DNA from: a virus
Reading direction: 5' to 3' (one strand)
DNA length: 15,092 nucleotides
UHGV virus genome: UHGV-1737584
Part shown: piece after piece, positions 1-15,092 of the stretch
Layout of the letters: each line of letters opens with the position of its first letter
Position numbering within the stretch: the stretch's first letter is position 1
Notes under the pieces: model-generated
Database searches by the model: none
What the model was told of the DNA's origin: nothing
The model's input: the letters and a program-made list of their open reading frames with translations, nothing else
Position numbers and translations under genes: made by a program

Positions 1-1412
1 GTACTCAACAGGGGGATCTTTTCACCGCTTGTGCCAAGTTCTCTTAAACCAAGGTATTGGATAACGGCCAGTGTGCTTGTTTTAGCCAGAATATCGCGAC
101 CGACTGACGTTAAATCAGTCTGAGCTACCGTATCCTTACCAGTGAAATAAGGCAGTTTGTTTGCACCAGTCGCAAGGGCAGCGAGAGCGGTTAAAGTTGC
201 ATCCAGAGGCTGTTTGCCTGCCAGCGCATTTGTCATTGTTGTCGCAAAGTTCGGGTCATTGCCAAGTGCTGCGGCAAGCTCATTCAGGGTATCAAGAGCT
301 TCTGGTGATGAACCAACCAATGCGGATATGGCAGCTCTTACATAAGCGGTCGTAGCAATCTGCGTGTTATTCGTACCCTGTGCAGCGGTAGGCGCAGTAG
401 GTATTCCCGTTAATGCAGGACTTGCTAAAGGAGCTTTAAGAGCCAGAGCATTGTTGATAGTTGTGCTGAAATTCGGGTCGTTATTGATCGCAGCAGCTAT
501 TTCTTTAAGCGTATCCAGTGTGCCAGGTGCACCGTTGATAAGTGCCGTTATAGCTGCCTTAACAAAGGCTGTATTTGCGATCTGCGTGCTATTTGTACCT
601 TGCGCTGCCGTCGGCGCGGTTGGCGTTCCTGTCAGACTCGGGCTTTCTATTGGCGCTTTGGTATCAGCCAGATCTTTTATAGACTTAACAGCTTTAGGGG
701 TAGCCGCCATTGTTTCGCTGTCGCTGTTAGTTGCGCTACTGAGCTGAACTAATCCCTTTTGCGTTGTGCTTGCATCCTGTGCCGTATACTTGCTTTTCGC
801 CAGATCGTAGGCTTTTTTAACTGCCAGCGAACTTGCAGCAACATCACTTCTGGTACTGGTTACAGAGTCTGAAATATCAATGCCGATCGAGCGGTTGATA
901 CGCTCGGATGTATCAATCATCTCCTGGGTAATGGCAGATACACTAGCAGGGATATTCACCGTACAAACAAGCAGCTCCCCATCTCCTAACTGATATGAAT
1001 CGGTATAGGTTCTGGCAACAAATTCAGCCGCATGAATATGTGACGCGGTATTCACCTGGTAGGTATCTTCTCCAAGGAGGTATCTTCCCTTCAGCACAAT
1101 TGCATATTTCTTGCCTGCACTAAGTGCAAGAGAAATATCCTTACGTTGCTGAATAGTTACCTGGTAAAATTTACCAATATCCACCGACGCCGCGCCTGCG
1201 GTTTTATCACCATCCACTGAGGTAATTAACAGGTTCATCCCACCGCCAGGCTTAGGTAAGAAACCGGCATAAAATCCCGGGTCAACAATCCCCCTGAATT
1301 TTCGGTTTAGCGCGGCTGACAGATATGGTTCGTGGTATTGCACATCGGCCACCAGAGCCAACGACTCGGATGATGGGTAAGTAACCGATGTAACAACTGT
1401 AACGTCATTCAT
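1..1412 (-). CDS. S: Tail fibre protein, N-terminal ~470 codons; gene continues beyond window start
   Basis: Minus-strand ORF, ATG at complement 1410-1412 with AAGGAT 8 nt upstream, open to position 1. My translation contains repeat modules (SPSLTGTPTAPTAAQGTNSTQIANTAFV...DTLKEIAAAINNDPNF; KGLVQLSSATNSDSETMAATPKAV; KLPYFTGKDTVAQTDLTSVGRDILAK) that I recognise as the conserved P2 H / Mu S / P1 S fibre repeats. Symbol assigned by synteny. Confidence 0.85.
   Translation of the reverse strand, partial: MNDVTVVTSVTYPSSESLALVADVQYHEPYLSAALNRKFRGIVDPGFYAGFLPKPGGGMNLLITSVDGDKTAGAASVDIGKFYQVTIQQRKDISLALSAGKKYAIVLKGRYLLGEDTYQVNTASHIHAAEFVARTYTDSYQLGDGELLVCTVNIPASVSAITQEMIDTSERINRSIGIDISDSVTSTRSDVAASSLAVKKAYDLAKSKYTAQDASTTQKGLVQLSSATNSDSETMAATPKAVKSIKDLADTKAPIESPSLTGTPTAPTAAQGTNSTQIANTAFVKAAITALINGAPGTLDTLKEIAAAINNDPNFSTTINNALALKAPLASPALTGIPTAPTAAQGTNNTQIATTAYVRAAISALVGSSPEALDTLNELAAALGNDPNFATTMTNALAGKQPLDATLTALAALATGANKLPYFTGKDTVAQTDLTSVGRDILAKTSTLAVIQYLGLRELGTSGEKIPLLS
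207..656 (-). repeat. Two diverged ~225-bp direct repeats inside the tail-fibre gene, each encoding a ~75-aa fibre repeat module
   Basis: DNA around 361-420 resembles 590-650; protein aa ~253-328 and ~329-402 are paralogous (ESPSLTGTPTAPTAAQGTN... versus ASPALTGIPTAPTAAQGTN...). Boundaries approximate. Confidence 0.7.
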
Positions 1413-1423
1413 CAAGCATATCC

Positions 1424-1858
1424 TTATGCTGTAGTCGTGTTTATGGCCATAACTGCGGTATATGTTTTGCCCACATACAGCGAGTCTTCCTGGACACAAA
1501 TAATGGCGATTGGCTTGTTCTCGTTATCCAGAACAACCAGAGTGTTGAATGGGTAGTTTTTCCCTTCCTGCAACTGGCTTTGATCAAGGTCCATTCGGAC
1601 AGTAATTATCCCGCCTGAGTAGGTTGGGACGAGGTTGATGGTGCAAAATTGACTGGTCAGTTCTGCCAGTTCGAAAGCCTTTGGCAGTTCTCCAATCTCA
1701 TAAGTGCCATCTCCTTTCTTAGTAACCAGCGAACTGGTACCGAAAACGGCCTTGCTGATTAAAAATCGAGAGCCTTTGTTAATGGACGATTCAGCGCGCC
1801 GCTGATAGTAATAGTCCAACAACTGACTCTTATAGAGGTTTGTTGAGACGTCAGACAT
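1424..1858 (-). CDS. 144-aa protein between baseplate genes and tail fibre; probable tail-fibre-associated structural protein
   Basis: Complete ORF on the tail-operon strand, ending 12 bp before the fibre start. Position matches gene R of the P1 R-S-U fibre operon as I recall it; no motif recognised. Confidence 0.55.
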   Translation of the reverse strand: MSDVSTNLYKSQLLDYYYQRRAESSINKGSRFLISKAVFGTSSLVTKKGDGTYEIGELPKAFELAELTSQFCTINLVPTYSGGIITVRMDLDQSQLQEGKNYPFNTLVVLDNENKPIAIICVQEDSLYVGKTYTAVMAINTTTA

Positions 1859-1936
1859 GATTTTCCCTAATCAATGTTGTGAAGCCTCATTGTAAGATAA
1901 GTAACTTGTCACCCCGCCCTGCGGACGGGGTGATTA

Positions 1937-2776
1937 TCAGGCATCACTATCCAGCAGCAAATCATCTGCGCGGGTGCGATCAAACGTAGGCGTTGCTTTC
2001 ACAATAGTGCCGCCCGGCGTTGCAGTGATCGGAGCGCTAATCGACGTAACTCCAGTAAGCGAAGTTGTATCCGAAGTTTCAAACCAGCAGTACGCTTTTT
2101 CGGTATCAGAAATCTCGTTCAAAGTGATCATGTCGGCGTGTTCATTTACAACAACCGACAAATAGAGCGTAAGCCCATCAAACACTATATGCAGTGGCAG
2201 TAGAGGCTTTACGAACTGATTAAACTTTCTGAGAATTTCTTCTGTAATTGCGGACTGATCTATCGTGCCAGTAATCCCCATTGTCCGGGCCAGGTCGTTT
2301 ATGAGAATACTGATCATCCCTCTGGAAGTCAGAAACATCTCGCCGAATGTGCCGCCGGTAGTCTCCAGTGTGCTTTCAGGTATTAGAACCGTGCCATAGG
2401 GATGACGCTCAAGATCCACCGGTGCATATATCGGATCCCATAAAACAGAAATACCGTTAAATTCGCGATAAATTGTCTGGTTTATAGGGCGTTCAGTCCC
2501 CTTAAAGTGAATCTCATCAAGACGCTGTTGTAACAACATCGGAACGGAAGATGAGTTCGACGTTCTGATAGTAAAGAACTGGCCAAGTTCATTTGTCCTG
2601 GTCTCCAGATCCTCCTTGCTCATGGAAAAAATAGACTTCCGGTTGGTAATTCGCTCCAACCATGGGTCAACAAAGGTATCCATCATTGACTGAACCAAAT
2701 CAGCCAATGATTTATAGAGCAATGACTTTTGCTTAGCTGATGTAAGCCGGTTATTAAACCAGGAACGCTGCATCAC
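1937..2776 (-). CDS. 279-aa putative baseplate/tail protein
   Basis: Complete ORF whose start overlaps the stop of the upstream 477-aa gene (ATGA at 2773-2776), implying translational coupling. Position corresponds to P1 gene 16 by my recollection; function inferred from context only. Confidence 0.55.
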   Translation of the reverse strand: MMQRSWFNNRLTSAKQKSLLYKSLADLVQSMMDTFVDPWLERITNRKSIFSMSKEDLETRTNELGQFFTIRTSNSSSVPMLLQQRLDEIHFKGTERPINQTIYREFNGISVLWDPIYAPVDLERHPYGTVLIPESTLETTGGTFGEMFLTSRGMISILINDLARTMGITGTIDQSAITEEILRKFNQFVKPLLPLHIVFDGLTLYLSVVVNEHADMITLNEISDTEKAYCWFETSDTTSLTGVTSISAPITATPGGTIVKATPTFDRTRADDLLLDSDA

Positions 2777-4206
2777 TCCTCCTCATACGAAATATTAAAG
2801 GTGGAGTTTTCTGTATCCAGATAAACGAAATCGTAAAAGCCGTTGGACTCATTCCACTCGACAAATTCCAGATAAAAGTCGCGGAAATAACCCAGCGTTT
2901 CGATAAATGCCCAAACGTCTTTTTTCTTAATCAGGATGTACTTGCCGACACGGTTCGGATCAAAGAAAGTTGAGTCACGCCCAAATTTTGTTTCCAGTGC
3001 CGACTTCAGCTCATCAGTCACGTTCTCAATGGTCAGGCTTGCCGATATCCGCCCGGTGATGGTGATCTTAAAGGGTAGTTTTCTGACCTCTTTATACGAG
3101 AATTTCTTGTTCAACTCATTCGGCACCTTCTTAAAGGCAGCCAGGATCATTTCTTCAAGCTCTGACTGGCTTTTATTTGGATGCCACCCTGAAATAAATA
3201 TCTTATTGATATTCCGAACATTATAAGCACCATCTAATTTCTCTTGCTGGCCTTCGCCCCATGCCTTTACCCAGGACAGTCCCGGGATGTTACGCACCAG
3301 AAAATACGTATAGTCCCCGCCCCATACGACCTGATCATCATAGGCAAGGTAATATTGTGCACGGTTACGTGTGATCTCCGTTGTTTCGGCATCGGTACCT
3401 GCGGTTATAGGTGTCATTGTCTTAACTGAAATCAAATTAGCTAAATTAGCCGCAGAATCGACAGGCGTCAGGTTTTGGCCAGCAACCAGGGTTATATCGC
3501 CGTTGGTGCACCATACCTTAAGCGTAATGATCGAGCCTTCTGGCGGTATTTGCCCAATTAGCCCATCACCGAATCGAACCCCCAACTGCTCAGATGGTTT
3601 ATAAAACTCAACGTAGACCTGGCTTTTACTACCGGCTAACCGGAACATAGTGCTGGAAGACCACTGCGTGGTCTTACCATCGGTCGTCACGAATACTTCC
3701 AGCTTATAGCAGACAGCAGTAAGAGCCTTTGATAACACGACTTCCAGAAATTCTTTAGCTGCCGTAACGGTATATGTCACCTCCTGGATTTCCAACTGCG
3801 CCACTTCTACCGTACCGGTGCCGTCAACCAACCTGCATACATCCATAGTCATGTAAGGGTACTGGTCGTCAGATATTAAAGGCATGTTTTTGGGGATTAC
3901 CGCTGGGGCATCTTCACTTGTGGCGGTGATCTCAATCATCCCCGATGACGGTGTTGGCTTGGTACCAACGTAACTATTCGTTTCTGCCGCTGCCAGGATA
4001 GAGGAACGCCGCGTCGCGGTCGATATAAAGCCTTCAGCCAGCGCCGCATCGGCATACTGAAAGCACCTGTAGACAATCTGGGTAATAAACAATGTCAGCA
4101 TCGAGACAAATTGAGAGCCGACAAACTTCGACCAGAATGAGTCTTTCTCGACAAGCTCTTCAAACTCTGCACGAATACTGTCTTTAGTCGGTGTTGTTTT
4201 ACTCAT
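2773..4206 (-). CDS. 477-aa putative baseplate protein (baseplate J-like size class)
   Basis: Complete ORF coupled by 4-bp overlaps to both neighbours (4203-4206 and 2773-2776). Size and position between a small wedge-like gene and the fibre-proximal genes fit a baseplate component (P1 bplA by position); not verified by motif. Confidence 0.6.
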   Translation of the reverse strand: MSKTTPTKDSIRAEFEELVEKDSFWSKFVGSQFVSMLTLFITQIVYRCFQYADAALAEGFISTATRRSSILAAAETNSYVGTKPTPSSGMIEITATSEDAPAVIPKNMPLISDDQYPYMTMDVCRLVDGTGTVEVAQLEIQEVTYTVTAAKEFLEVVLSKALTAVCYKLEVFVTTDGKTTQWSSSTMFRLAGSKSQVYVEFYKPSEQLGVRFGDGLIGQIPPEGSIITLKVWCTNGDITLVAGQNLTPVDSAANLANLISVKTMTPITAGTDAETTEITRNRAQYYLAYDDQVVWGGDYTYFLVRNIPGLSWVKAWGEGQQEKLDGAYNVRNINKIFISGWHPNKSQSELEEMILAAFKKVPNELNKKFSYKEVRKLPFKITITGRISASLTIENVTDELKSALETKFGRDSTFFDPNRVGKYILIKKKDVWAFIETLGYFRDFYLEFVEWNESNGFYDFVYLDTENSTFNISYEEE

Positions 4207-4562
4207 AGCACCACGTCCTGTGTGATAGTTATATCCCTGATACGAATGGATATTTTCAACTTATCAAAAGCATCTCCCTCGGCTACTGACAAGCCAGAAA
4301 TCGGTATGTCAGGTAAATCTACCGTCAGTTTTTGCAACAGCATTGCCTCAACCGCAATTTGAACATGCGACAAGTTGGTCGGTTCGTGTTTAAACTGCGG
4401 TAAAACATTGCCCCATGACGGATCTCCGTATACCTCACCCTGATAAGTGTTTAGCCACTCATATAAACGAGCGCCCCAGGCCTCCTCCTGGGACTCATAC
4501 GTTTTTACGCCGGATAACTCCAGCGTCAGCAAAGGATCAATTTCGTTATTGTTGGCCATCAA
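4203..4562 (-). CDS. 119-aa small structural protein, possibly baseplate wedge (gp25/W-like size class)
   Basis: Complete ORF; start overlaps the stop of the Sit-like gene (4559-4562) and its stop overlaps the next start. Assignment by size and synteny only (P1 pmgA by position). Confidence 0.5.
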   Translation of the reverse strand: MMANNNEIDPLLTLELSGVKTYESQEEAWGARLYEWLNTYQGEVYGDPSWGNVLPQFKHEPTNLSHVQIAVEAMLLQKLTVDLPDIPISGLSVAEGDAFDKLKISIRIRDITITQDVVL

Positions 4563-7500
4563 TCAACTCTCGCGTAGTCATTCATCAACGGATCATCAAT
4601 TGACAGTGGTACCGTGCGCATAACGCCCGGCTGAGGCGTGCTGACCTTTACGACAGTTCCCTGGCCTTTCGCCGAGTCTTTGGTGTGCTCTTCAATCCTG
4701 GCAAGCAATGAGGTCATCTGCGCAAACAGCCGCTTCGTTTCACCATCAAGTGAAACGGTATTATCAGCCAACTGCATTGTCGGCTTGGCACCGGAGCCAC
4801 CAAGGTCACTAATAACCTGTCCGTCTATCTGCATACGACCGGTTGGTTGCTGCAAATCGTTGGCGGCAGTCGTCACCTGGGACGTGGAGGCTGGTTCAGG
4901 CGCATTATTTTTCCGCATCCCCGGCGAGTTGCGGAGTTTATCGAATAGTCCATCAATCCCCATTTGTGCGCCGAGCTGGTCAAAGTAACTTGAGTTGTTG
5001 GCCACCGGACGCGCTTCTTCAACTGGCATCGGGGTATCAACATACACATTACCAGCTGCTGTTGCGGTCCCCTTCCCTCGTGCACGTTCTTCTAGCGTTC
5101 CCTGAACGACTTCCCGACGCATCCCCCGGCCATTCATGAATTTGTTGACCAGATCGTTAACGCCAACAGCATTGCCGATTTTGTCGACCAGACCGCCTTT
5201 CTCAAACGGGCTATCACCAGGGGTAAACGCCAAGCCAGGGGTAAACGCCAAGCCAGGGGTAAACGCCAAGCCAGTATACTGATCGATAACGGCGTTATCA
5301 GGCAGTGGTCCCCTCACTCCATATTGCGCCCCACCCTGTGCTCCTGCCCCAGGTGTATAGATTTCACCACCTAAATAGCGAGCACGATGAGTATTGACCT
5401 TGATCGCGTACTCACGGTTTTCCTTCGATAAGTCACCGGTGCCTTTTTTCCACTTATTAATAGTGCCAAACCCAGCGTTATATGCAGTGATGGCCTCGTT
5501 TAAGTCTCCATTGGCTTGCTTCAGATACTTGCTCATGAGAAGAGCCGCAGCTTCTGCCGATTTCACAGGATCAAACGATTCACCTTCAGCTAAGCCAGTC
5601 TCTTCACGAGCAATGCCCGTGAACTGAAACATTCCTAGAGCACCAGTTTGGGATTTTGCGTATGGATTACCACCAGATTCAGTTGCAGCAATCGCGTAAA
5701 GAGTGCCTTCAGGAAGACCATATTTATTCTCTAGTTCAGCAAAATACGGAGCTAACTTATCGAGATTTGCCTTACCTTCAGCGCCAAGGCTTCCGACTTT
5801 TACATCTAAGTTGCCATTATTGTAGGTATCAGCAGCTTTCTGAATGTCATTCCCAGTGCCGGTGGTATTACGCGACGATGATGACGAGCTATTTTGACCA
5901 ATAGCTTTATCAATTTTCTGCAACGCGCGATTGCCCGTTTCTACGGCATTTGCATTGATAATCTGATTGGCAGTTTGTTTAACTGTTTTATTGCTATCTT
6001 TCGCTGTGTCCAGTGCCGCATTTATCACGCGGGTAGCAATATTACTCTGTTTGGCATCGGATTCAGTTTTAGAATTAGACGTCTCCTGGTGGCTATTAAC
6101 CGGAGCTTTTAACTCTGGAGTGATTTCTTTCGCATTAGCCTCGCCGATCGGATTGGGTATTTTTGATACAATCATTGCCGCAGGGGTATTTTTAACGGCA
6201 TCAACCGCTGCATCTAATGCTTTACCGGGTAAATTTTTAACCCCATCCCAAATATTACCAGCCGCCTCTTTAATGTGTTTCCCTGGGTTCTTAATGAAAT
6301 CAATTGCACTATCAATTGCATCACTGAAAACCTGTTTCAGGTTATCGACAGTAAAGAAGTCTTTGATGGCATCCAGCTTTTCAAGCAGCTTATTAGATGT
6401 ATCGCTAAACCATGCTGAAACAGCATCACCAATCTTTGCTGTGTAATCATCGAACTTGGTAGAAATCGTGTCGCCAAGGTTAGAAATATATGTTTCTAAG
6501 TTGGTAATCCCACTATCAATGGCCTGGGCAATACTTTCCGTCGAAAATGATTGCAACATATTGCCGATATCCTCAAATCCAAGTGATTTGAGAACCTCAC
6601 CAATGGCGCTGCTAATACCAGATACAAGCCCCCCCATATCAAGAACATTAGCTAACGTATAAGCGGCTTTTTGCTGGAATGATGGATCTTGTCCTGATTT
6701 AAGCCCAAACGCTCGACGTTGCGCTTCTGTATCATTCCAACCGGTTACCGCATCATAAATACCTCCAGCCACTGTGCCGACCAGGGGAATTGCGCGTAAC
6801 GCCCCTTTACCAACTGCCTTTAATCCAAGTTTACCTGCTGCCCGGGCAGCCAAATCTCCGCCTTCATGGGCGAGAGTCTTCTTGCCACCACCGCGTAGCA
6901 TTCCTACAAGTTTCTTTGCCCCCAGAGCGCCAAAAGCGAGTGCTCCAGCTTTTTTCAGCATGCCACGCCCCATTAACAACGACGCGACGCCACCGGCCCC
7001 CTTCCCTAACAGGCTAAATAATTTGGACAGCAAGCCGCCCTTCTTTTTCCCGGTGTTTTTGGCTATCTGATCAAGGGCGCTGAGAATCTTGTCATTGCCC
7101 TCTTTAATTTCGCTGGTCTGCTCCTGAAGTTCCTGAACCGTCCGTTTTTGGGTGTTAACCTGAACGACATCGGCACTATTTTGCGATTTACGCCTAAAAA
7201 AACCTTTTCTACGGCTGTTATCGTCATTGCCACGAATCACATCGGCAATAGACTTTCTGGCACCATTAAGCGATCCACCAACTTCTTTTGATATCCCGCC
7301 AAGCTCCTTCCCTGCGGCCCACAATGGACCAGCAACGGCATAACCTAACGCATCGACGGCACGAGTCTCTGAAGGGTTACCTATGCCTTCAGCTACTTTT
7401 GACAGTTTTTTTAATAAACCTGATTCAGCATTTAGACGCTCATCATCCTCTTTGCGCCTGTCCTTTTCAGCACGTTCAGCACGGGCATCTTCCGCTGCGG

Positions 7501-7987
7501 CCTTACTCCCTGACTTTCCAATAAAACGACCACGCGCATCGCGTTGGTTTTGGCTTTTTTGCGCACCGTCTTTTTGACCGAACATTTCGCGAGCGTGTTC
7601 GGCTGCTTCGGTCCGTTGCGCCTTTACATCTTCTGTTATAGCCTTCTTGCGTCGTTTTTTACCCTTTCGCGTAGTTGATTTGGCCTGCGGTTCCTGTAGA
7701 GCAACATCCTCCTGAACTACACGAGAAACGTCCCCTAAATTAAGCCGTTTCATTGCCTCAACAATAGGGTCCACTGATGGCGCATTGGCCACAAAGTCTG
7801 GCTGGGAATTTTCGATTGTGCGATTTAATGCCGACACACTGCGAGAGACAGGATCAACTGTAGCAACTCGCCCCCCTTTCAAATCTTCAACGGCTTCCCG
7901 AATACCTGCAAGCTCTTCCAGCTCTTTTGCGCTGGCGGTTTCAACCGTCCTTATCACATCGTCAATGTTGGCGTTTTTTCTTTCCAT
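4559..7987 (-). CDS. sit: Structural injection transglycosylase / tape-measure-like protein, 1142 aa, with soluble lytic transglycosylase (SLT) domain
   Basis: Longest ORF in window. Contains GLPEGTLYAIAATESGGNPYAKSQTGALGMFQFTGIARE (aa ~760-800), the family-1 lytic transglycosylase motif with catalytic Glu-Ser (Glu codon at complement 5678-5680). N-terminal part is K/R/E-rich, followed by a Gly/Ala-rich hydrophobic glycine-zipper segment (aa ~300-420). P1 Sit is about 1140 aa as I recall. Confidence 0.9.
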   Translation of the reverse strand: MERKNANIDDVIRTVETASAKELEELAGIREAVEDLKGGRVATVDPVSRSVSALNRTIENSQPDFVANAPSVDPIVEAMKRLNLGDVSRVVQEDVALQEPQAKSTTRKGKKRRKKAITEDVKAQRTEAAEHAREMFGQKDGAQKSQNQRDARGRFIGKSGSKAAAEDARAERAEKDRRKEDDERLNAESGLLKKLSKVAEGIGNPSETRAVDALGYAVAGPLWAAGKELGGISKEVGGSLNGARKSIADVIRGNDDNSRRKGFFRRKSQNSADVVQVNTQKRTVQELQEQTSEIKEGNDKILSALDQIAKNTGKKKGGLLSKLFSLLGKGAGGVASLLMGRGMLKKAGALAFGALGAKKLVGMLRGGGKKTLAHEGGDLAARAAGKLGLKAVGKGALRAIPLVGTVAGGIYDAVTGWNDTEAQRRAFGLKSGQDPSFQQKAAYTLANVLDMGGLVSGISSAIGEVLKSLGFEDIGNMLQSFSTESIAQAIDSGITNLETYISNLGDTISTKFDDYTAKIGDAVSAWFSDTSNKLLEKLDAIKDFFTVDNLKQVFSDAIDSAIDFIKNPGKHIKEAAGNIWDGVKNLPGKALDAAVDAVKNTPAAMIVSKIPNPIGEANAKEITPELKAPVNSHQETSNSKTESDAKQSNIATRVINAALDTAKDSNKTVKQTANQIINANAVETGNRALQKIDKAIGQNSSSSSSRNTTGTGNDIQKAADTYNNGNLDVKVGSLGAEGKANLDKLAPYFAELENKYGLPEGTLYAIAATESGGNPYAKSQTGALGMFQFTGIAREETGLAEGESFDPVKSAEAAALLMSKYLKQANGDLNEAITAYNAGFGTINKWKKGTGDLSKENREYAIKVNTHRARYLGGEIYTPGAGAQGGAQYGVRGPLPDNAVIDQYTGLAFTPGLAFTPGLAFTPGDSPFEKGGLVDKIGNAVGVNDLVNKFMNGRGMRREVVQGTLEERARGKGTATAAGNVYVDTPMPVEEARPVANNSSYFDQLGAQMGIDGLFDKLRNSPGMRKNNAPEPASTSQVTTAANDLQQPTGRMQIDGQVISDLGGSGAKPTMQLADNTVSLDGETKRLFAQMTSLLARIEEHTKDSAKGQGTVVKVSTPQPGVMRTVPLSIDDPLMNDYARVD
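5217..5274 (-). repeat. Perfect tandem repeat, 3.2 copies of an 18-bp unit (CCAGGGGTAAACGCCAAG), encoding (LAFTPG)x3 in the Sit-like protein
   Basis: Read directly: copies at 5217-5234, 5235-5252, 5253-5270 plus a partial CCAG. In frame; translates to TGLAFTPGLAFTPGLAFTPG just C-terminal of the SLT domain. Confidence 0.95.
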
Positions 7988-8068
7988 GATCTTATCGCCT
8001 ACCGCTTCGGTTTAAGTTTTTCTTCCAGTTTCTCCAACAGGAAAAACGCATAGGATTCAGTAAGCCTT

Positions 8069-8950
8069 TCAGCGTCCTGAATCGGTATACCCCCATACAA
8101 AACCAGGTTGGACACTAAGGTCTGATAGCTTTTCAATCCCCACCTGTGGAATGAAGTCGATAGCCCGAAAGGGCACCCACAGACGGGTATACGCACCCTC
8201 TGTGGACTCCTTTTTATCCTGATTTGGGCATTTATGCGGCGGGAGACGAAGACGCATTTCGCCTTTATCGATGTAGCACGGTAAACCATGTTCGAGCTTT
8301 TCATGAGCCAGTCGGATGTGTGCCGCCAGCTTCATAAATTCAGTATCAATGGCCATCCGTTTAATCGTTTCATAACGACGCTCGGCCTGATCTTCACGAG
8401 TACCGCTAACATCGTTATAAAGCTCACACTGATAAGCGAATTCCCAAAAACGCAAATCAACGATCGCTTCTTTGAATTCCGCGTCGTCTTCAGGTGGCAA
8501 TGCTGCACGGCGCATCTCCAGCATTTCCATTGCCCAACCATCAAGCGGCACGATACGCCATTGATAAGGTACTCCCTCTACAGACACCTCAATATCGTCA
8601 ATGAAAGGTTCCACTTCCAGGACCTGGATATCTTCAGCCAGAGCATTCATATCGCAATCGTAATAATGCTCTTTACCGCAATGTTTACAGGTGTAGGTGA
8701 ATGTCTCGACCGGTGTTTCACGGGAGCCGGTAAATATCCACCATAACGCGGTAATCCGGTCCTGCGCCGTCCATGTCAGGGGATCATGTTTCGCGGGTTC
8801 AGCCAGCAAGGCTTTTAAATACGCCGTTGTCTGTTGTTCTTGTTCCTCCGGTGTTATCGAGTTGAAACGCATCGCATCAGCAATATTTGGCTGACGGAAC
8901 TGGATCAATTCAGTTGGCCGCGATGGTAGCGGGAAAAGGGGTAAAAGCAT
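8069..8950 (-). CDS. 293-aa putative morphogenetic protein with a Cys cluster (C-x2-C-x7-C)
   Basis: Complete ORF on the tail-operon strand, 81 bp upstream of sit. Contains TCKHCGKEHYYDCD (Cys 88, 91, 99) plus Cys 175, 225, 241. Function unknown (P1 pmgB by position). Confidence 0.6.
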   Translation of the reverse strand: MLLPLFPLPSRPTELIQFRQPNIADAMRFNSITPEEQEQQTTAYLKALLAEPAKHDPLTWTAQDRITALWWIFTGSRETPVETFTYTCKHCGKEHYYDCDMNALAEDIQVLEVEPFIDDIEVSVEGVPYQWRIVPLDGWAMEMLEMRRAALPPEDDAEFKEAIVDLRFWEFAYQCELYNDVSGTREDQAERRYETIKRMAIDTEFMKLAAHIRLAHEKLEHGLPCYIDKGEMRLRLPPHKCPNQDKKESTEGAYTRLWVPFRAIDFIPQVGIEKLSDLSVQPGFVWGYTDSGR

Positions 8951-8964
8951 CCTTGCTCCTTAAT

Positions 8965-9576
8965 TCAAAGAGAAAAACTAAAGCCCAGAAGGGAAGCCAA
9001 AGAACTTGAGGATTGGTTAAACGTGCTGTGCAATGCGAAGGTCATTGGGAATGACTTAAATTCCGTAACCTGATCCCGCGCATAGGTGACATCGCCGGTA
9101 GTGACCGGGAATACCGTCATCTCATTTTCCAGTTTGGTTAAACCGGAGGACAGCAACCGATAAATACGCACATTGAGCAAATATTTAGACGGTATATTCC
9201 CGGTACCGTCCGGATTGATCACCCGACTTTTTGCCGTCTTAAACCAGTCCAAAACGAGGCCATCAACGGTATCCCTGACCATCATTGTTATCTGCCCAGG
9301 CGAACGCTCCGTTGGTTGAAGGATATTCCCTCCGCCGATTTTAATCGTTTCATATTCGATGCTGTAATCGTGGTAGGTAATGTCTTTGGCAAAGAAGTCT
9401 GCCCCCTCCAGTCCATCAACTTCGACAGAGAACTGCCATCCTTGCGCGAACAGCATTTTGTTCATGATGATTGACGTCAGCTTACCAACTTCCCGCTCAC
9501 CAACGCCGGAGCCAAATAATGTCGTCGTTAATGCCGAAGATACATAAGACTTTACTGAAGCAACATTAAGCCCCAT
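8965..9576 (-). CDS. 203-aa putative tail structural protein (possible tail tube)
   Basis: Complete ORF, 14 bp upstream of the 293-aa gene. Size (~22 kDa) and position fit a tube-type protein (P1 tub by position); no motif verified. Confidence 0.5.
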   Translation of the reverse strand: MGLNVASVKSYVSSALTTTLFGSGVGEREVGKLTSIIMNKMLFAQGWQFSVEVDGLEGADFFAKDITYHDYSIEYETIKIGGGNILQPTERSPGQITMMVRDTVDGLVLDWFKTAKSRVINPDGTGNIPSKYLLNVRIYRLLSSGLTKLENEMTVFPVTTGDVTYARDQVTEFKSFPMTFALHSTFNQSSSSLASLLGFSFSL

Positions 9577-9586
9577 ATCAGCCCCC

Positions 9587-10194
<608 letters not shown>

Positions 10195-10233
10195 TTGTCA
10201 TTTGTGACAGTATGCTCGCAATCGTAGTGATTA

Positions 10234-10773
10234 CTACCACCAACTGCTAGCTTTCTTCTCTCTAGCTTTTCCTTCGCTTTGCAGTAAATCTTTACTTCCT
10301 GTAGAAATATTTCTATTTGCATCAGCCTCAGACTGAATTACATCTGTCTTAGCTGCTCTCTCCTTCAACTCCTGCTCTATAAAATCGTTTTCTCGCTGGA
10401 CACGAGCCGCTTTTGCTTGCAGTTCGAGTTTCATGCTTTCGAGTTGCAGCTTGCGAAGCTCATCCTCATAAGCTTGATCTCGCTTCTTGTCATTTGCTAG
10501 CTCGGCTTCTCGTTTCGCTCTACGTTCATTTTCTGCAGCAACACGCTGTTTTTCGCGTGCAGCAGCGGCAGATGCTGCTTTTTCTCTTCTAATACGTTCA
10601 GCTTGTGCTTGTTGGCGAATAAGTTCTTTTCTGGCATCCTCAGCTTGCTGCTCTTTAGCTCGCCCTTCATTTTCCGCTTGAGCAATAGCAGCAATTTGAC
10701 TTTGCAACGAGTTAGCCAAGGCAGTGCCTACACTAAACGTAGAAAAGATTAGAAATAAAATAATTTTATTCAT
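10234..10773 (-). CDS. Exported (signal-peptide) coiled-coil protein, 179 aa, TolA-like charged helical repeats
   Basis: N-terminus MNKIILFLIFSTFSVGTALA is a classic Sec signal peptide. The mature part is a highly charged Ala/Glu/Arg/Lys/Gln-rich predicted coiled coil ending in SSWW. Lies in the P1 sim-locus position. Confidence 0.75.
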   Translation of the reverse strand: MNKIILFLIFSTFSVGTALANSLQSQIAAIAQAENEGRAKEQQAEDARKELIRQQAQAERIRREKAASAAAAREKQRVAAENERRAKREAELANDKKRDQAYEDELRKLQLESMKLELQAKAARVQRENDFIEQELKERAAKTDVIQSEADANRNISTGSKDLLQSEGKAREKKASSWW

Positions 10774-10776
10774 AAA

Positions 10777-11298
10777 TTATTTCTTTTCTGGACAAGTAGC
10801 ATTTGGCTGAATTCGAGTTTCATTATCTTTAGTTGAAATAAGCACAGCAAGCCCCGTTGTAAACTGGCATGCTTTACCAACTTGAGTTGAAGTGAACACC
10901 TTAGTTCCTTCTTTATAAGTCAGTGAAACACCTTCAACAATTGTTTTATCACTAACCAAAGAACCAGCCGCTGCACCAAGAGCCGCACCACCAGTACCGC
11001 CAGCTACAGCACCCAGTGTCGATGTGCCTTTAACATTATAACCGGCAACGCCCCCAGCAACAGCTCCCAGTACCGCACCAAATGTCTGTGCCGCTTCTTT
11101 ATTAGCTTTATTATCAACTTTCACTTTAGCTGGAAGCACAGAGATAATATTGACTGTCTTTGTTTCCTGCTTCGAATTCAATTGAGCGGTATCATAAACA
11201 TCGGCAGCATAATCAGCACCGCTAGATTGACACCCAGAAAGAAGAATTGCAGATACAACAAGAGCGCATAAAGTATACTTTTTAGACATAAGAATCAT
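10777..11298 (-). CDS. Lipoprotein with glycine-zipper segment, 173 aa (or 170 aa from the second ATG at complement 11287-11289)
   Basis: Lipobox LLSGC after a KK-containing hydrophobic leader (MSKKYTLCALVVSAILLSGC). Central GAVLGAVAGGVAGY...GAVAGGTGGAALGAAAGS glycine zipper, typical of SlyB/PCP-like outer-membrane lipoproteins. Two C-terminal Cys. Only 3 bp separate it from the downstream gene. Confidence 0.8.
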   Translation of the reverse strand: MILMSKKYTLCALVVSAILLSGCQSSGADYAADVYDTAQLNSKQETKTVNIISVLPAKVKVDNKANKEAAQTFGAVLGAVAGGVAGYNVKGTSTLGAVAGGTGGAALGAAAGSLVSDKTIVEGVSLTYKEGTKVFTSTQVGKACQFTTGLAVLISTKDNETRIQPNATCPEKK

Positions 11299-11565
11299 CC
11301 CGGAAAAACAAAAACCGGCGAGAAGTTACCACGAGAACGGAAAGTAAACAAGAATACTCCCATTGACTTATATCAATTAATCAACTTTTTATAAGCTATC
11401 ACTAACTTATTGTGTATAGCTGAAAAGTCAGAGACAAGTTCACCATCTGCATTATTTCTTAAGTTAATAGTTTATTGCTAACTTAATTCATGTATCGACT
11501 ATTGATAGCCATCTTAAAGTTACAATATCCCTCTGCATTATTTTTCATCACAAATAATATATCTA

Positions 11566-11596
11566 TTGCACGACACTCATCTGCTCTAATAAATTT
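11566..11596 (+). promoter_or_regulatory. Sigma70-like promoter (TTGCAC-17-ATAAAT) overlapped by a C1-operator-like site (ATCTGCTCTAATAAATTT)
   Basis: -35 at 11566-11571, -10 at 11589-11594. The 15-mer TGCTCTAATAAATTT at 11582-11596 matches the P1 C1 operator consensus ATTGCTCTAATAAATTT as I remember it (15/17) and recurs at 13253-13267. Confidence 0.6.
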
Positions 11597-11634
11597 GTAT
11601 TTTTAAGTCGCGAATGCTATCTTTTCGCATCATA

Positions 11635-11663
11635 TTGACCTTTTAATCGTTCAGGCTTATAGT
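11635..11663 (+). promoter_or_regulatory. Near-consensus sigma70 promoter TTGACC-17 nt-TATAGT, candidate constitutive promoter for the c4-icd-ant transcript
   Basis: -35 at 11635-11640, 17-nt spacer, -10 at 11658-11663. Lies ~120 nt upstream of the structured RNA and has no operator-like sequence over it. Confidence 0.6.
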
Positions 11664-11783
11664 TTCGCCGTCGTAGCAAATTCTGCGACCGGGTTTAGCA
11701 GCCTGAATGATTGTGCGGACAGCCGCAGATATCCGATATTGCGGTATTTTTGTGTCCGTAAAACCGCGTTACGCCCAAATTAT

Positions 11784-11860
11784 GGTGGGGCGTGATGGGG
11801 AGGCTTCGGCCTGCTGGTTTCACAATCGCCAGTCTGCTAACCCCGTCACGTCCTGCCACC
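11784..11860 (+). ncRNA. c4: c4-like antisense repressor RNA, ~77 nt, structured
   Basis: Nested stems read from sequence: GGUGG (11784-11788) with CCACC (11856-11860); GUGAUGGGG (11792-11800) with CCCCGUCAC (11841-11849, one G-U); internal GGC-UUCG-GCC tetraloop hairpin (11802-11811). Single-stranded segments are complementary to downstream sites at the icd RBS. The 77-nt span matches the reported length of P1 c4, but I chose the ends knowing that length. Confidence 0.55.
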
Positions 11861-11910
11861 TGTTTAGCAGCGGGTAGCAGGTTGTTAAACCTGATTGTGA
11901 GGCCGTAACT

Positions 11911-12132
11911 ATGGTTAATGCCAATCCTTGCGCACGCCAAGAATTCATCTGGCGTTTCTATTCCTGTAAAAAACACCACTATCACTTCGTCATCGCAGCA
12001 ACAGAAGACGAAGCACGCTCTCAATTGCCTGATGGTCCCTGCATTTTTACTGCCCGTTTTTCAACTAACTCGCGCAATTCACTTAGTTACTGGAACCTCC
12101 CCTTCTCTGCCGACGTTCAGGGGGATTTATGA
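11911..12132 (+). CDS. icd: Small 73-aa protein, translationally coupled to the antirepressor gene (Icd-like)
   Basis: ORF with GAGG 8 nt upstream of its ATG; its TGA overlaps the ant start (ATGA at 12129-12132). The RBS region is complementary to the upstream RNA. The 73-aa length and position match P1 icd as I recall. Confidence 0.6.
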   Translation: MVNANPCARQEFIWRFYSCKKHHYHFVIAATEDEARSQLPDGPCIFTARFSTNSRNSLSYWNLPFSADVQGDL

Positions 12133-13172
12133 AAAAACCTCTCGTCACCCGTAATGAAATAGCCGAAGCGATCGCCCTGCATACAACCTGTATGCCGACA
12201 CGGGAGATCCCCGGCGCAATTGCCAACTATTTCATGATAACCAGACGTTTTTATACCCGAACAGATAAGGCTGTGATCAACAAGCTACTGATAGCCGAGA
12301 TCAGGGATTATTTGATTGAACAAGGACGTCTACGTTACGCAACAGTGGCAGCAGAAATGAGAAAGGAGGCACATAGAATGACCGGTAATAATTTGAATGT
12401 TGAAAAACCAGCACCTGTTGCTTCAGCTACGCCATCACCAGCTGTGAATGTTATCTCCAACACTGGAGACACAATCGACAGCCAGACACTGTTAAAGATG
12501 GTCAATGAAGCTCGTAAGTTATGTGGGGAACCAGAGGTTCGGAACAACAAATTCATCGAAAAAATACTCGACGAATTAGAAGGTGAGGACGGTTACACAA
12601 AAAGTGCAACCGTGCCGCCAGGTGGCGGTACGCCTATGGTTGTCATAACCATGACCTACAAACAAGCCCTGCGAGTCGCCGCGCGCGAGTCAAAAGCGGT
12701 CCGCCGTTCGCTGATCGACAAACTGGAAGAATTACAGCAGGCAAACTCCCCTACCCCATCGATCCCCCAGACATTACCAGAAGCCCTACGCCTGGCTGCC
12801 GAGTTAGCAGAACAGAAAATGCAGTTGGAACAACAGCTGGTGGCCGCAGCCCCTAAAGTCGATTTTGCCGACCGGGTATCAGTGGCCAATGGAATCCTGA
12901 TCGGGAACTTTGCAAAGGTCGTTGGACTTAAGCAAAACGCCCTTTTCTCATGGTTGCGCCAGAATGGCATTCTCATGGCTTTTGGAGCGCGCAAAAACGT
13001 ACCGCGCCAACAGTACATCAACGCGGGGTATTTCACGGTGAAAGAAGTGGTGCTGGATGATGAAAATGGCTACCAGATACGGCTGACGCCCCAATTAACG
13101 GGTAAAGGCCAGCAGTGGTTAACTCGCAAGCTACTTGATGCTGGTTTGTTAAAACCAGTAGCAATAGGTTAA
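12129..13172 (+). CDS. ant1: Antirepressor Ant1, 347 aa, with C-terminal ANT/KilA-C type domain
   Basis: Strong SD AGGGGG upstream of the ATG. C-terminal ~130 aa (LPEALRLAAELAEQ...GKGQQWL...LLDAG) is the phage antirepressor C-terminal domain and is paralogous to the KilA C-terminus in this window. Confidence 0.85.
   Translation: MKKPLVTRNEIAEAIALHTTCMPTREIPGAIANYFMITRRFYTRTDKAVINKLLIAEIRDYLIEQGRLRYATVAAEMRKEAHRMTGNNLNVEKPAPVASATPSPAVNVISNTGDTIDSQTLLKMVNEARKLCGEPEVRNNKFIEKILDELEGEDGYTKSATVPPGGGTPMVVITMTYKQALRVAARESKAVRRSLIDKLEELQQANSPTPSIPQTLPEALRLAAELAEQKMQLEQQLVAAAPKVDFADRVSVANGILIGNFAKVVGLKQNALFSWLRQNGILMAFGARKNVPRQQYINAGYFTVKEVVLDDENGYQIRLTPQLTGKGQQWLTRKLLDAGLLKPVAIG
12378..13172 (+). CDS. 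ant2: Nested in-frame antirepressor Ant2 (264 aa) from an internal start
   Basis: Internal in-frame ATG at 12378-12380 preceded by a consensus SD AAGGAGG at 12364-12370. P1 is known to make Ant1 and Ant2 from in-frame overlapping starts. Confidence 0.6.
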   Translation: MTGNNLNVEKPAPVASATPSPAVNVISNTGDTIDSQTLLKMVNEARKLCGEPEVRNNKFIEKILDELEGEDGYTKSATVPPGGGTPMVVITMTYKQALRVAARESKAVRRSLIDKLEELQQANSPTPSIPQTLPEALRLAAELAEQKMQLEQQLVAAAPKVDFADRVSVANGILIGNFAKVVGLKQNALFSWLRQNGILMAFGARKNVPRQQYINAGYFTVKEVVLDDENGYQIRLTPQLTGKGQQWLTRKLLDAGLLKPVAIG

Positions 13173-13184
13173 CAAAAGAAAAAA

Positions 13185-13210
13185 ACCTGCCAGCAAACTG
13201 GCAGGTTTCT
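13185..13210 (+). terminator. Hairpin terminator after ant (9-bp perfect stem ACCTGCCAG / CTGGCAGGT, loop CAAA, then TTCT)
   Basis: Read directly from sequence, 13 nt after the ant stop. The 3' U-tract is short, so termination may be partial. A-rich 5' flank could also let it act on the opposite strand. Confidence 0.55.
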
Positions 13211-13249
13211 GAGCAGATCATCCAACCCGATCTGGATCGAGTTAGAAAA

Positions 13250-13267
13250 ATTTGCTCTAATAAATTT
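13250..13267 (+). promoter_or_regulatory. Second C1-operator-like site (ATTTGCTCTAATAAATTT) in the kilA-repL promoter region
   Basis: Same 15-mer TGCTCTAATAAATTT as at 11582-11596, located 70 nt upstream of kilA. A possible -35 TTGCTC (13252-13257) and weak -10 TAAGTG (13275-13280) overlap it. Confidence 0.6.
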
Positions 13268-13336
13268 CGTTTTCTAAGTGCAAAGAATCACCATTTCGAG
13301 CTGGTGATTGAAGGTTGATGCAAATTTGGAGAAAAA

Positions 13337-14137
13337 ATGCAACAAACATTCAATGCGGATATGAATATATCAAACCTTCATCAAAATGTCGATCCTTCAA
13401 CCACTCTGCCCGTTATTTGTGGTGTTGAAATTACGACCGACCGCGCTGGCCGTTACAACCTTAATGCTCTACACAGAGCGAGCGGACTCGGTGCCCATAA
13501 AGCGCCAGCTCAATGGCTAAGAACGCTGTCAGCCAAACAGCTCATCGAAGAGCTTGAAAAAGAAACTATGCAGAATTGCATAGTTTCGTTCGAAGGCCGT
13601 GGCGGCGGCACTTTTGCCCATGAATTGCTCGCAGTGGAGTACGCAGGCTGGATTTCTCCCGCGTTTCGGCTGAAGGTAAACCAGACATTTATCGACTATC
13701 GAGCCGGAAGATTACAACCTGCTATTCCGAAGAGCCTCCCAGAAGCTCTCCGTTTGGCTGCTGACCTGGCAGAGCAAAAGCAACGGCTGGAGCAAAAAAT
13801 GCTGATGGATGCACCTAAAGTCGAATTCGCCGAACGCGTTGCTACCGCCAGCGGGGTTCTAATCGGCAACTATGCCAAAGTGCTCGGCCTGGGCCAAAAC
13901 TATCTCTTCACCTGGTTGCGTGATAACGGAATTCTGATCGCAACCGGTGAACGCAGGAACGTCCCCAAACAAGAATACATATCCCGTGGGTATTTCACCC
14001 TTAAAGAAACCGTGATCGATACAAGCAATGGAAGCAGGATTTCTTTCACGACTCGTATAACCGGCAAAGGTCAGCAGTGGCTGATGAAGCGATTGCTTGA
14101 TGCTGGTGTGCTGGTACCTGTCGCGGCAACGCGCTAA
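13337..14137 (+). CDS. kilA: KilA protein, 266 aa: N-terminal KilA-N domain plus C-terminal ANT-type domain
   Basis: SD GGAG 7 nt upstream. N-terminal region (ICGVEITTDRAGRYNLNALHRASG...) has the KilA-N DNA-binding-domain character. C-terminal ~130 aa are paralogous to Ant. The 266-aa length matches P1 KilA as I recall. Confidence 0.8.
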   Translation: MQQTFNADMNISNLHQNVDPSTTLPVICGVEITTDRAGRYNLNALHRASGLGAHKAPAQWLRTLSAKQLIEELEKETMQNCIVSFEGRGGGTFAHELLAVEYAGWISPAFRLKVNQTFIDYRAGRLQPAIPKSLPEALRLAADLAEQKQRLEQKMLMDAPKVEFAERVATASGVLIGNYAKVLGLGQNYLFTWLRDNGILIATGERRNVPKQEYISRGYFTLKETVIDTSNGSRISFTTRITGKGQQWLMKRLLDAGVLVPVAATR

Positions 14138-14166
14138 CAGACGTAGTAAGAACCACCAGCATTGTA

Positions 14167-15012
14167 ATGCTGGCTAAAGTCACTTTCCTGAGCTGTATAA
14201 CGATGAGCGATTTTACTTTTTCTGGCTATGAATTGGCCTGCTTTGTAACACACTCCGGTCTATCCCGTAGCGCCGGGCATATCCTGTCGCAATGTGCAAA
14301 TCTAGCGGCAACAACCAGTGAATACTTCATTCACAAGCCTCACCGCCTGATCGCGGCAGAAACTGGTTATAGCCAATCAACCGTCGTTCGTGCATTCCGT
14401 GAAGCTGTAAACAAAGGAATTCTGTCTGTAGAGATTGTTATCGGCGATCACCGTGAACGTCGCGCTAACCTGTACCGGTTTACACCATCCTTTTTGGCCT
14501 TTGCTCAACAAGCCAAAAATGCGCTAATTGAAAGCAAATTAAAGATCTCTTCAGCCGCAACCAAGGTTAAAGCAGTTCTCGCTAAGACATTGGCTTTATT
14601 TGATTTTTTATCCACACCCCCATGTCAAAATGATACCCCCTCCCCCTGTCAGGATGACGTGGCAATAAAGAATAAGAAGTCACAAATTAAAAAAACAAAA
14701 AGATCAGTTTCCGGCGGTGCCGAAACGACCAGCCTCAAAAAACTGACTTCATGGATCGCCGAGGCAAAAGCAAAGGCTGACAATCTGCGGTTATCCAAAA
14801 AACGCGCTCAAAAACATGAGTTCAAGCAGAAAGTAGAGGCGGCAGCGCGGAAATATGCTTACCTGAAGAACAAGCGTTCTCCTGATATTGGCGGGGTATC
14901 AAACTTCGATAATTTGCCGCATTGCATGACGGTAAACGAAGCTCTTAATGCGGTTTTAGCCAAAAATAAAGATAACGAACAATGGGGTATACCGGCAGGA
15001 TTCAGAGGGTGA
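14167..15012 (+). CDS. repL: Lytic replicon protein RepL-like, 281 aa, with HTH-like segment
   Basis: ORF immediately after kilA. Segment LIAAETGYSQSTVVRAFREAVNKGIL looks like a helix-turn-helix. Contains an internal short direct repeat and an A-rich tract. The 281-aa length matches P1 RepL as I recall. No clear SD at 14167; an in-frame alternative ATG lies at 14203. Confidence 0.7.
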   Translation: MLAKVTFLSCITMSDFTFSGYELACFVTHSGLSRSAGHILSQCANLAATTSEYFIHKPHRLIAAETGYSQSTVVRAFREAVNKGILSVEIVIGDHRERRANLYRFTPSFLAFAQQAKNALIESKLKISSAATKVKAVLAKTLALFDFLSTPPCQNDTPSPCQDDVAIKNKKSQIKKTKRSVSGGAETTSLKKLTSWIAEAKAKADNLRLSKKRAQKHEFKQKVEAAARKYAYLKNKRSPDIGGVSNFDNLPHCMTVNEALNAVLAKNKDNEQWGIPAGFRG

Positions 15013-15092
15013 TAGATTGCTCTAATCTGGAGTCACCTGGCGTTTTCAGTTTGAGGTCGGAGATGCAATCTGATTTTTTACAGTTAGCGATC

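Follow-up and report, generated by a model that had tools for sequence, protein, structure and literature searches.

A shared KilAC module at the C-terminal ends of Ant and KilA in a P1/P7-type phage-plasmid

Two neighbouring genes of the virus genome UHGV-1737584 encode proteins that resemble each other over their last ~130 residues and differ ahead of them, and the locus thus raises the question of what the shared segment is, how it came to stand in both proteins and what it contributes to each. We analysed a 15,092-nucleotide stretch of this genome (the window), given as one strand, 5' to 3', to which all coordinates below refer. The two proteins are Ant and KilA of a P1/P7-type phage-plasmid. 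A preliminary description, made from the letters of the sequence, had presented their common part as a paralogous domain that shuffling placed behind unrelated N-termini. Our results indicate, with a probability of about 0.93, that Ant and KilA each end in a mobile KilAC module (PF03374) together with a conserved helix of ~25 residues ahead of it.

The shared C-terminal module

The two genes and the two copies of the module are located as follows.

12129..13172, + strand: ant1, 347 aa; open reading frame to which the ant1/ant2 annotation of P7 and P1 maps
12759..13163, + strand: KilAC module of Ant including the linker helix, aa 211-345; PF03374 at 106.5 bits (cutoff 25.3), with the ANT core at aa 234-336 (12828-13136)
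13337..14137, + strand: kilA, 266 aa; open reading frame, annotated here in P1 and P7
13721..14125, + strand: KilAC module of KilA including the linker helix, aa 129-263; PF03374 at 112.2 bits (cutoff 25.3), with the ANT core at aa 152-254 (13790-14098)

Compared as whole proteins, Ant and KilA align with a BLASTP E-value of 2e-65. Residues 213-345 of Ant and 131-263 of KilA align free of gaps at an offset of 82 residues, with 86 of 133 positions identical (64.7%), and over the range of the preliminary description the count is 84 of 131 (64.1%), likewise ungapped. The claim of a shared C-terminal domain of ~130 residues therefore stands as far as homology is concerned, but the identity is about two thirds and not half. 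The coordinates given for the domain agree with the reading frames to the codon, since 12765 begins Ant codon 213, 13157 ends codon 343, 13727 begins KilA codon 131 and 14122 ends codon 262. The motifs LPEALRLAA-LAEQK, APKV-FA-RV, GKGQQWL and LLDAG are present as quoted, whereas GNYAKV reads GNFAKV in Ant. The DNA of the two modules is 62.7% identical over 399 nt (69, 80 and 39% at codon positions 1, 2 and 3, respectively), and blastn finds the similarity as well (66%, E = 3e-14). Pairwise alignment thus reveals significant similarity of both protein and DNA, and the contrary outcome, named beforehand as the one that would speak against a common domain, did not occur.

Domain models give the segment its name. 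ANT is found in both proteins and KilA-N in KilA only. Both segments match positions 1-106 of the 108 positions of PF03374 (ANT, the "KilAC domain" of Iyer, Koonin & Aravind 2002) with scores that exceed the gathering threshold more than fourfold, and it is nearly certain that the shared module is the known KilAC domain. The architecture of the PF03374 family, with a variable N-terminal domain followed by KilAC, is that of Ant and KilA alike. Unlike the Pfam model, however, the segment shared by Ant and KilA reaches ~21-25 residues further upstream, over the helix LPEALRLAAxLAEQK. The similarity begins abruptly at IP(Q/K)(T/S)LPEALRLAA(E/D)LAEQK, ahead of the start of the ANT model at Ant 234 and KilA 152, and in the AlphaFold model of Ant this leading stretch is the start of a long helix (residues 216-252) that runs into a compact core (253-337).

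Iyer, Koonin and Aravind (2002) already described how the KilAC domain is shuffled, as later papers relate (PMC5944126, PMC6145125, bioRxiv 10.1101/2024.01.05.574328), and Ant1 and Ant2 of P1 and P7 have been named as carriers of the KilAC type, the N-terminal partner of which alternates among AntA/B, Bro-N and pRha (PMC9043618). Domain shuffling is accordingly supported as the explanation, though it had already been published. The module shared by Ant and KilA is real but already known, and the finding is an ordinary one because KilAC has been named and defined from P1 KilA itself. As a discovery it carries little weight, the domain having been named after P1 KilA in 2002, and in genome annotation pipelines both genes already go by the label "antirepressor KilAC domain-containing protein".

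N-terminal partners and the mosaic joint

Ahead of the KilAC modules the two proteins contain the following parts.

12129..12413, + strand: N-terminal module specific to Ant1, aa 1-95, helical and missing from Ant2; delimited by library matches that cover the query only from residue 1 to ~95/116 and by the AlphaFold2 (AF2) model
12447..12755, + strand: middle domain of Ant, aa 107-209; without a Pfam or NCBIfam model, winged-helix-like fold
13415..13705, + strand: KilA-N domain of KilA, aa 27-123; PF04383 at 75.4 bits (cutoff 23.8)

A HMMER search against 1.84 billion representative sequences resolves Ant 1-212 into two independent modules. At E ≤ 0.001 the search returned 301 clusters of representatives, and of the 150 hits listed the majority match the middle domain. 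Matches to the N-terminal module are limited to query residues 1 to ~95/116 (P0134-P0136 and P0140), and this module also occurs alone or with other partners in such proteins. The AF2 model places helices at residues 8-85 and a disordered stretch at 88-111; the module is all-helical, with a low to moderate predicted local confidence (pLDDT). It looks like a third independent module of the protein.

The middle domain is predicted confidently, with a winged-helix-like order of elements (beta-alpha-alpha-beta-beta-alpha-alpha). It usually stands at the N-terminus of proteins of ~230-250 residues. KilAC ends about a third (30) of the 86 aligned sequences, which comprise Ant and 85 middle-domain homologues, and residues R129, E149, R186 and R192 are invariant in the family. 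Ant 1-212 has no Pfam match even at E ≤ 10 and no NCBIfam match, and NCBIfam has models for neither Ant nor KilA. The middle domain represents a well-populated family without a model in either collection. Phage_pRha (PF09669) is not found in Ant and matches 3 of the 86 aligned sequences, weakly (best E = 0.0039). Among solved structures, phmmer against the PDB sequences gave no match for KilA and only chance-level matches for Ant, and Foldseek against the PDB gave none at E ≤ 0.001.

A kinship of the middle domain with KilA-N was considered and rejected at the level of sequence: the domain gives no PF04383 match, and in a profile-profile comparison with a KilA-N profile of 77 sequences it received a non-significant probability of 0.4%. 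The N-termini of Ant and KilA are therefore unrelated at the sequence level, as the preliminary description had stated. Weak leads in the other direction are that the BLASTP alignment extends weakly over Ant 144-203 and KilA 67-121, that phrog_63 places both regions on the same profile positions, and that the secondary-structure elements follow in similar order.

The partner of KilAC in Ant itself differs among P1-like plasmids. Some P1-like IncY plasmid replicons match the query only from its position 634, which is window position 12762. The Ant protein of one such plasmid, pIso00270_01, is 100% identical to the Ant of the window from IPQTLPEAL to the end and ~65% identical in the N-terminal module, and has ORF6N (PF10543, E = 8e-17) where the window Ant has its middle domain. 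The DNA of the ORF6N type is 98.7% identical to the window over 12762-15026 and 69% identical over icd and the Ant N-terminal module, with no match in the middle domain. Both types are common, with 484 plasmid records matching the window-type middle domain and 248 the ORF6N type. Identity breaks sharply at 12762, where the middle domain is swapped and KilAC is unchanged, so that the KilAC module begins at a natural mosaic boundary and exchange point. Across these proteins KilAC stands at the C-terminus behind a variable predicted DNA-binding domain: KilA-N in KilA, the winged-helix-like domain in Ant, ORF6N in the alternative Ant and a Rha-like domain in Roi, a protein of lambdoid phages.

The two Ant alleles of P1-like plasmids can be compared directly at window 12408-12762 and at positions 1820-2911 of locus L005 (NZ_CP095126.1). 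In a large non-P1 plasmid, the 172-kb IncHI1B plasmid NZ_CP063488.1, an icd-ant block of the ORF6N plus KilAC type lies beside a phage C1 repressor gene and IS elements (positions 1506-3723 of locus L006). PLSDB lists the antirepressor there as a 333-bp remnant coding sequence, yet the open reading frame at 1724-2836 is intact (371 aa).

Ancestry of the two copies

To call the modules paralogous, as the preliminary description did, is to say more than that they are homologous. A tandem duplication in the P1 lineage could have made both modules, with different N-terminal domains joined to them later; the two genes lie side by side and point the same way, and their modules align without gaps in the same register. 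We compared each module with 50,697 phage records by tblastn. The C-terminal modules of Ant (Ant-C) and P1 KilA (KilA-C) are 65% identical to each other. Roi of the HK97, HK022 and Stx phages, together with gp62 of the Edwardsiella phages Edno5 and GF-2, reaches 66.7-68.1% identity with Ant-C and 66-68.5% with KilA-C. Among pairwise identities in an alignment of 22 modules, Ant and KilA share 63%, Ant and Roi 64%, and KilA and Roi 62%. A neighbour-joining tree of these 22 modules unites the Ant, KilA and Roi groups in one subfamily with 63.5% bootstrap support and places KilA-C beside the Ant clade, though with a bootstrap value of 46.5%.

Roi resembles Ant and KilA in further respects. Its module, in HK022/HK97 and Stx phages, is 62-68% identical to Ant-C and KilA-C and opens with the same IPKTLPEALRLAA motif, and the conserved leading helix LPEALRLAAxLAEQK is present in Roi and in Edno5 gp62 too. 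Both of these proteins combine a weak Rha-like (Phage_pRha) N-terminal domain with ANT, the domain of Roi scoring below the PF09669 cutoff, and the roi gene lies in the lambdoid nin region and not in an immunity operon. By these identities Ant-C, KilA-C and Roi are members of one enterobacterial KilAC subfamily. Ant-C and KilA-C are not demonstrably each other's nearest relatives, because Roi is equally close and the grouping of Ant with KilA reaches a bootstrap of only 46.5%.

The number of substitutions per nonsynonymous site (dN) between the two modules is 0.29, the corresponding synonymous value (dS) is saturated, and identity at third codon positions (39%) lies far below that at the first and second (69% and 80%). 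The two copies are therefore kept under purifying selection and diverged long ago, the age following from the saturation of synonymous sites. This saturation also bears on the duplication, as any such event would have to be older than the spread of the subfamily among lambdoid and Edwardsiella phages. A duplication is further disfavoured by the modules of Roi (HK97/HK022) and Edno5 gp62, which are 62-68% identical to each copy while the copies are 63-65% identical to each other, and by an Ant2-like protein of 249 aa (P0131), which at 70% is closer to Ant-C than KilA-C is. We consider a duplication in the P1 lineage unlikely. Of the term "paralogous", the homology is retained and the duplication inside P1 is no more than one possible origin; acquisition of the two modules independently from a shared pool is at least as likely.

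The preliminary description had also suggested that the similarity of the two copies could permit a recombination that deletes the terminator and operator between them. The features that such an event would concern are listed below.

13181..13210, no strand assigned: GC-rich hairpin between ant and kilA with a 13-pair stem; A-run before it, T-rich tail after it
13251..13267, + strand: C1 operator Op53 (OrepL), overlapping the kilA-repL promoter; 1 mismatch to the consensus, position as annotated in P1 and P7
14167..15012, + strand: repL, lytic replication initiator with oriL inside; open reading frame of 281 aa, annotated in P1 and P7

If the repeat were a working substrate of homologous recombination, the N-terminal part of Ant would be fused to the C-terminal module of KilA, the hairpin, Op53 and KilA-N would be lost, and repL would come under immI control. 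Because the two copies are in-frame direct repeats at a distance of 962 bp, a crossover would yield an intact hybrid open reading frame. Efficient recombination by RecA in E. coli requires a minimal processing segment of ~23-27 bp of uninterrupted identity. With 62.7% DNA identity, the two copies have longest identical runs of 12, 11 and 11 nt, well short of ~23-27 bp. We searched for natural recombinants with a probe joining ant 12400-12764 to repL 14138-14500. Its halves merge as one place if they lie within 865 bp of each other, and their distance is ~400 bp in the deletion product and ~1.37 kb in the wild type. No ant::kilA deletion junction was found in 512 matching plasmid records or in 514 complete E. 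coli genomes (517 records), the probe detecting only hybrids with a window-type Ant middle domain. Recombination between the copies is therefore highly improbable, and this suggestion was not borne out.

Possible function and the C1-controlled setting

What the module contributes to Ant and KilA can be approached by comparison with KilAC proteins of other systems. The isolated KilAC domain of Listeria AriS inhibits the SOS response (PMC9043618), the KilA-C domain of Gp07 of S. aureus phage phi11 carries the growth-inhibiting and filament-inducing activity (PMC5944126), and Acinetobacter CreP is a stand-alone KilAC toxin that blocks cell division (bioRxiv 10.1101/2024.01.05.574328). In AriS, phi11 Gp07 and CreP, as in Ant and KilA, KilAC is combined with interchangeable N-terminal domains (AntA/B, Bro-N or pRha) or with none. 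The isolated domain is the active part in these three proteins, whereas for the P1 modules an activity follows only by analogy. By that analogy, the preliminary description's term "effector module" is plausible for KilAC in P1. We tentatively suggest, with somewhat less than even confidence, that the variable N-terminal domains would supply the targeting, to DNA or to a partner, and that KilAC would be the output module which they have in common, acting on a conserved target, either a protein or DNA. KilAC would then be the most likely source of the lethality of KilA and probably part of the interaction surface of Ant, because the isolated KilAC of other phages blocks cell division or the SOS response.

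Several considerations weigh against our interpretation of the shared segment as a mobile output module. Those KilAC proteins that have been studied come from Gram-positive bacteria or Acinetobacter and are only distantly related to the P1 modules, and what is said of KilAC function in P1 Ant and P1 KilA is borrowed from those other systems. The tree of the modules is a distance tree of 22 sequences with modest support and leaves a minor share of the probability to a duplication in the P1 lineage. Finally, Roi occurs in lambdoid phages that have no C1-type repressor, and its equal similarity argues against a KilAC surface specific for C1.

The last point touches on the regulatory setting of the two genes, to which the following features belong.

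11580..11596, + strand: C1 operator (Op51 / Oc4 type) controlling c4-icd-ant; 2 mismatches to ATTGCTCTAATAAATTT, position as annotated in P7 and P1
11657..11709, + strand: a1/b1 targets of the C4 antisense RNA; Rfam RF03163, 54.6 bits (gathering score 46.7)
11778..11863, + strand: C4 antisense RNA gene; Rfam RF01695, 69.6 bits (gathering score 45)
11911..12132, + strand: icd, cell-division inhibitor, 73 aa; open reading frame, NCBIfam NF033153 phage_ICD_like at E = 3e-14, annotated in P1 and P7
13364..13392, - strand: antisense promoter-like site within the 5' end of kilA, corresponding to P53as / PaskilA of P1; 10 of 12 matches plus an extended TG, annotated at the same place in P1

Two operons of a P1/P7-type phage-plasmid lie in the window, namely immI (c4-icd-ant1/ant2) and that of the lytic replicon (kilA-repL). 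In a megablast search of phage records, DNA of punaviruses (P1, P7, RCS47, JL22, SJ46 and others) is 96-98% identical to 11500-15092 at 93-100% query cover. The order of features (C1 operator, c4, icd, ant1/ant2, C1 operator, kilA, repL) matches the annotated P7 and P1 records, and the scan with the C1 operator consensus has 0.07 matches expected by chance. The antirepressor context of a P1-type immI is complete, with a C1 operator, the C4 RNA and its targets, an overlap of the icd stop and the ant1 start at 12129-12132 (ATGA), and an internal, in-frame start of ant2 within ant1 at 12378, where AGGAGG lies ahead of the ATG. The layout of the P1 lytic replicon, a promoter controlled by Op53 followed by kilA and repL, is present as well. 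The genes, their order, the operators and the C4 RNA are the same as in P1 and P7, with allelic differences only. The names Ant and KilA and the assignment to adjacent operons (Op51-c4-icd-ant and Op53-kilA-repL, both C1-controlled) are consequently correct in the preliminary description, because they rest on P1/P7 synteny, on the C4 RNA with its targets and on the C1 operators.

The diversity of the modules was sampled by the representative-library search and by tblastn against phages; a search with full-length Ant gave near-identical P1-family proteins among the matches listed, and the P1-family Ant proteins are 94-98% identical to Ant (among 120 matches listed, all near-identical and of the P1 family). 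Over its last 141 aa, KilA is 99-100% identical to KilA proteins of the P1 family. In P1, according to Riedel et al. (1993) as related in PMC5944126 and PMC9043618, the complex of Ant1 and Ant2 binds and inactivates C1. We assume, from the 94-98% identity, that Ant1 and Ant2 of the window would do the same.

This invites a more specific explanation, namely that KilAC is the C1-binding surface and KilA, repressed by C1 at Op53, a second antirepressor that locks the lytic decision once repression fails. It would accord with the action of Ant1 and Ant2 in a complex with C1 (annotation notes of the P7 and P1 records), with the retention of an identical KilAC in the same operon by Ant alleles that have different middle domains, and with the fact that KilA has been considered another antirepressor (PMC8201110). 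Besides the equally similar modules of Roi, it conflicts with the action of KilAC domains elsewhere on host processes (PMC9043618, PMC5944126), and we regard a C1-binding KilAC as doubtful. Returning to KilAC as a mobile output module, we speculate, at a similarly low level of confidence, that KilAC and its leading helix form a regulator-exchange unit of temperate enterobacterial phages, with a common target for P1 Ant and KilA. If so, the boundary at 12762 and the ORF6N swap would be the trace of selection that favours a change of targeting domain with the output module retained, and if the target were C1, KilA would be a second antirepressor in a switch to lytic growth that reinforces itself. 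P1 is a convenient system in which to ask whether the killing or antirepressing activity of these proteins resides in KilAC, because both copies are under purifying selection in two C1-controlled operons and alleles swap the domain before an unchanged KilAC.

A few minor observations concern the surroundings of the two genes. The hairpin between ant and kilA scored as terminator-like only on the - strand in a simple scan, and TTTCT follows it on the + strand; it may act bidirectionally or mainly against antisense transcription from kilA. The P53as/PaskilA-like site inside kilA is strong and directed leftward. Some database proteins of 419-420 aa labelled "Icd-like" (P0001-P0003, P0005 and P0063) span all of Ant. 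In these entries icd and ant1 are read as one open reading frame, since 73 and 347 residues add up to 420, and they could be a real frameshift fusion or an artefact of sequencing or annotation. RepL has no Pfam or NCBIfam match, and its RefSeq names vary between "helix-turn-helix domain-containing protein" and "MarR family transcriptional regulator". Positions 1-11500 are tail and baseplate DNA of the P7/RCS47 type. P1 has the sim genes upstream of immI. In their place the window has lipoprotein genes of the P7/RCS47-type upf50.x group: upf50.0 and upf50.5, a pair of the P7 type that encodes membrane proteins and lipoproteins, lie at 10234-11298 on the - strand, which makes the element P7/RCS47-like upstream of immI.

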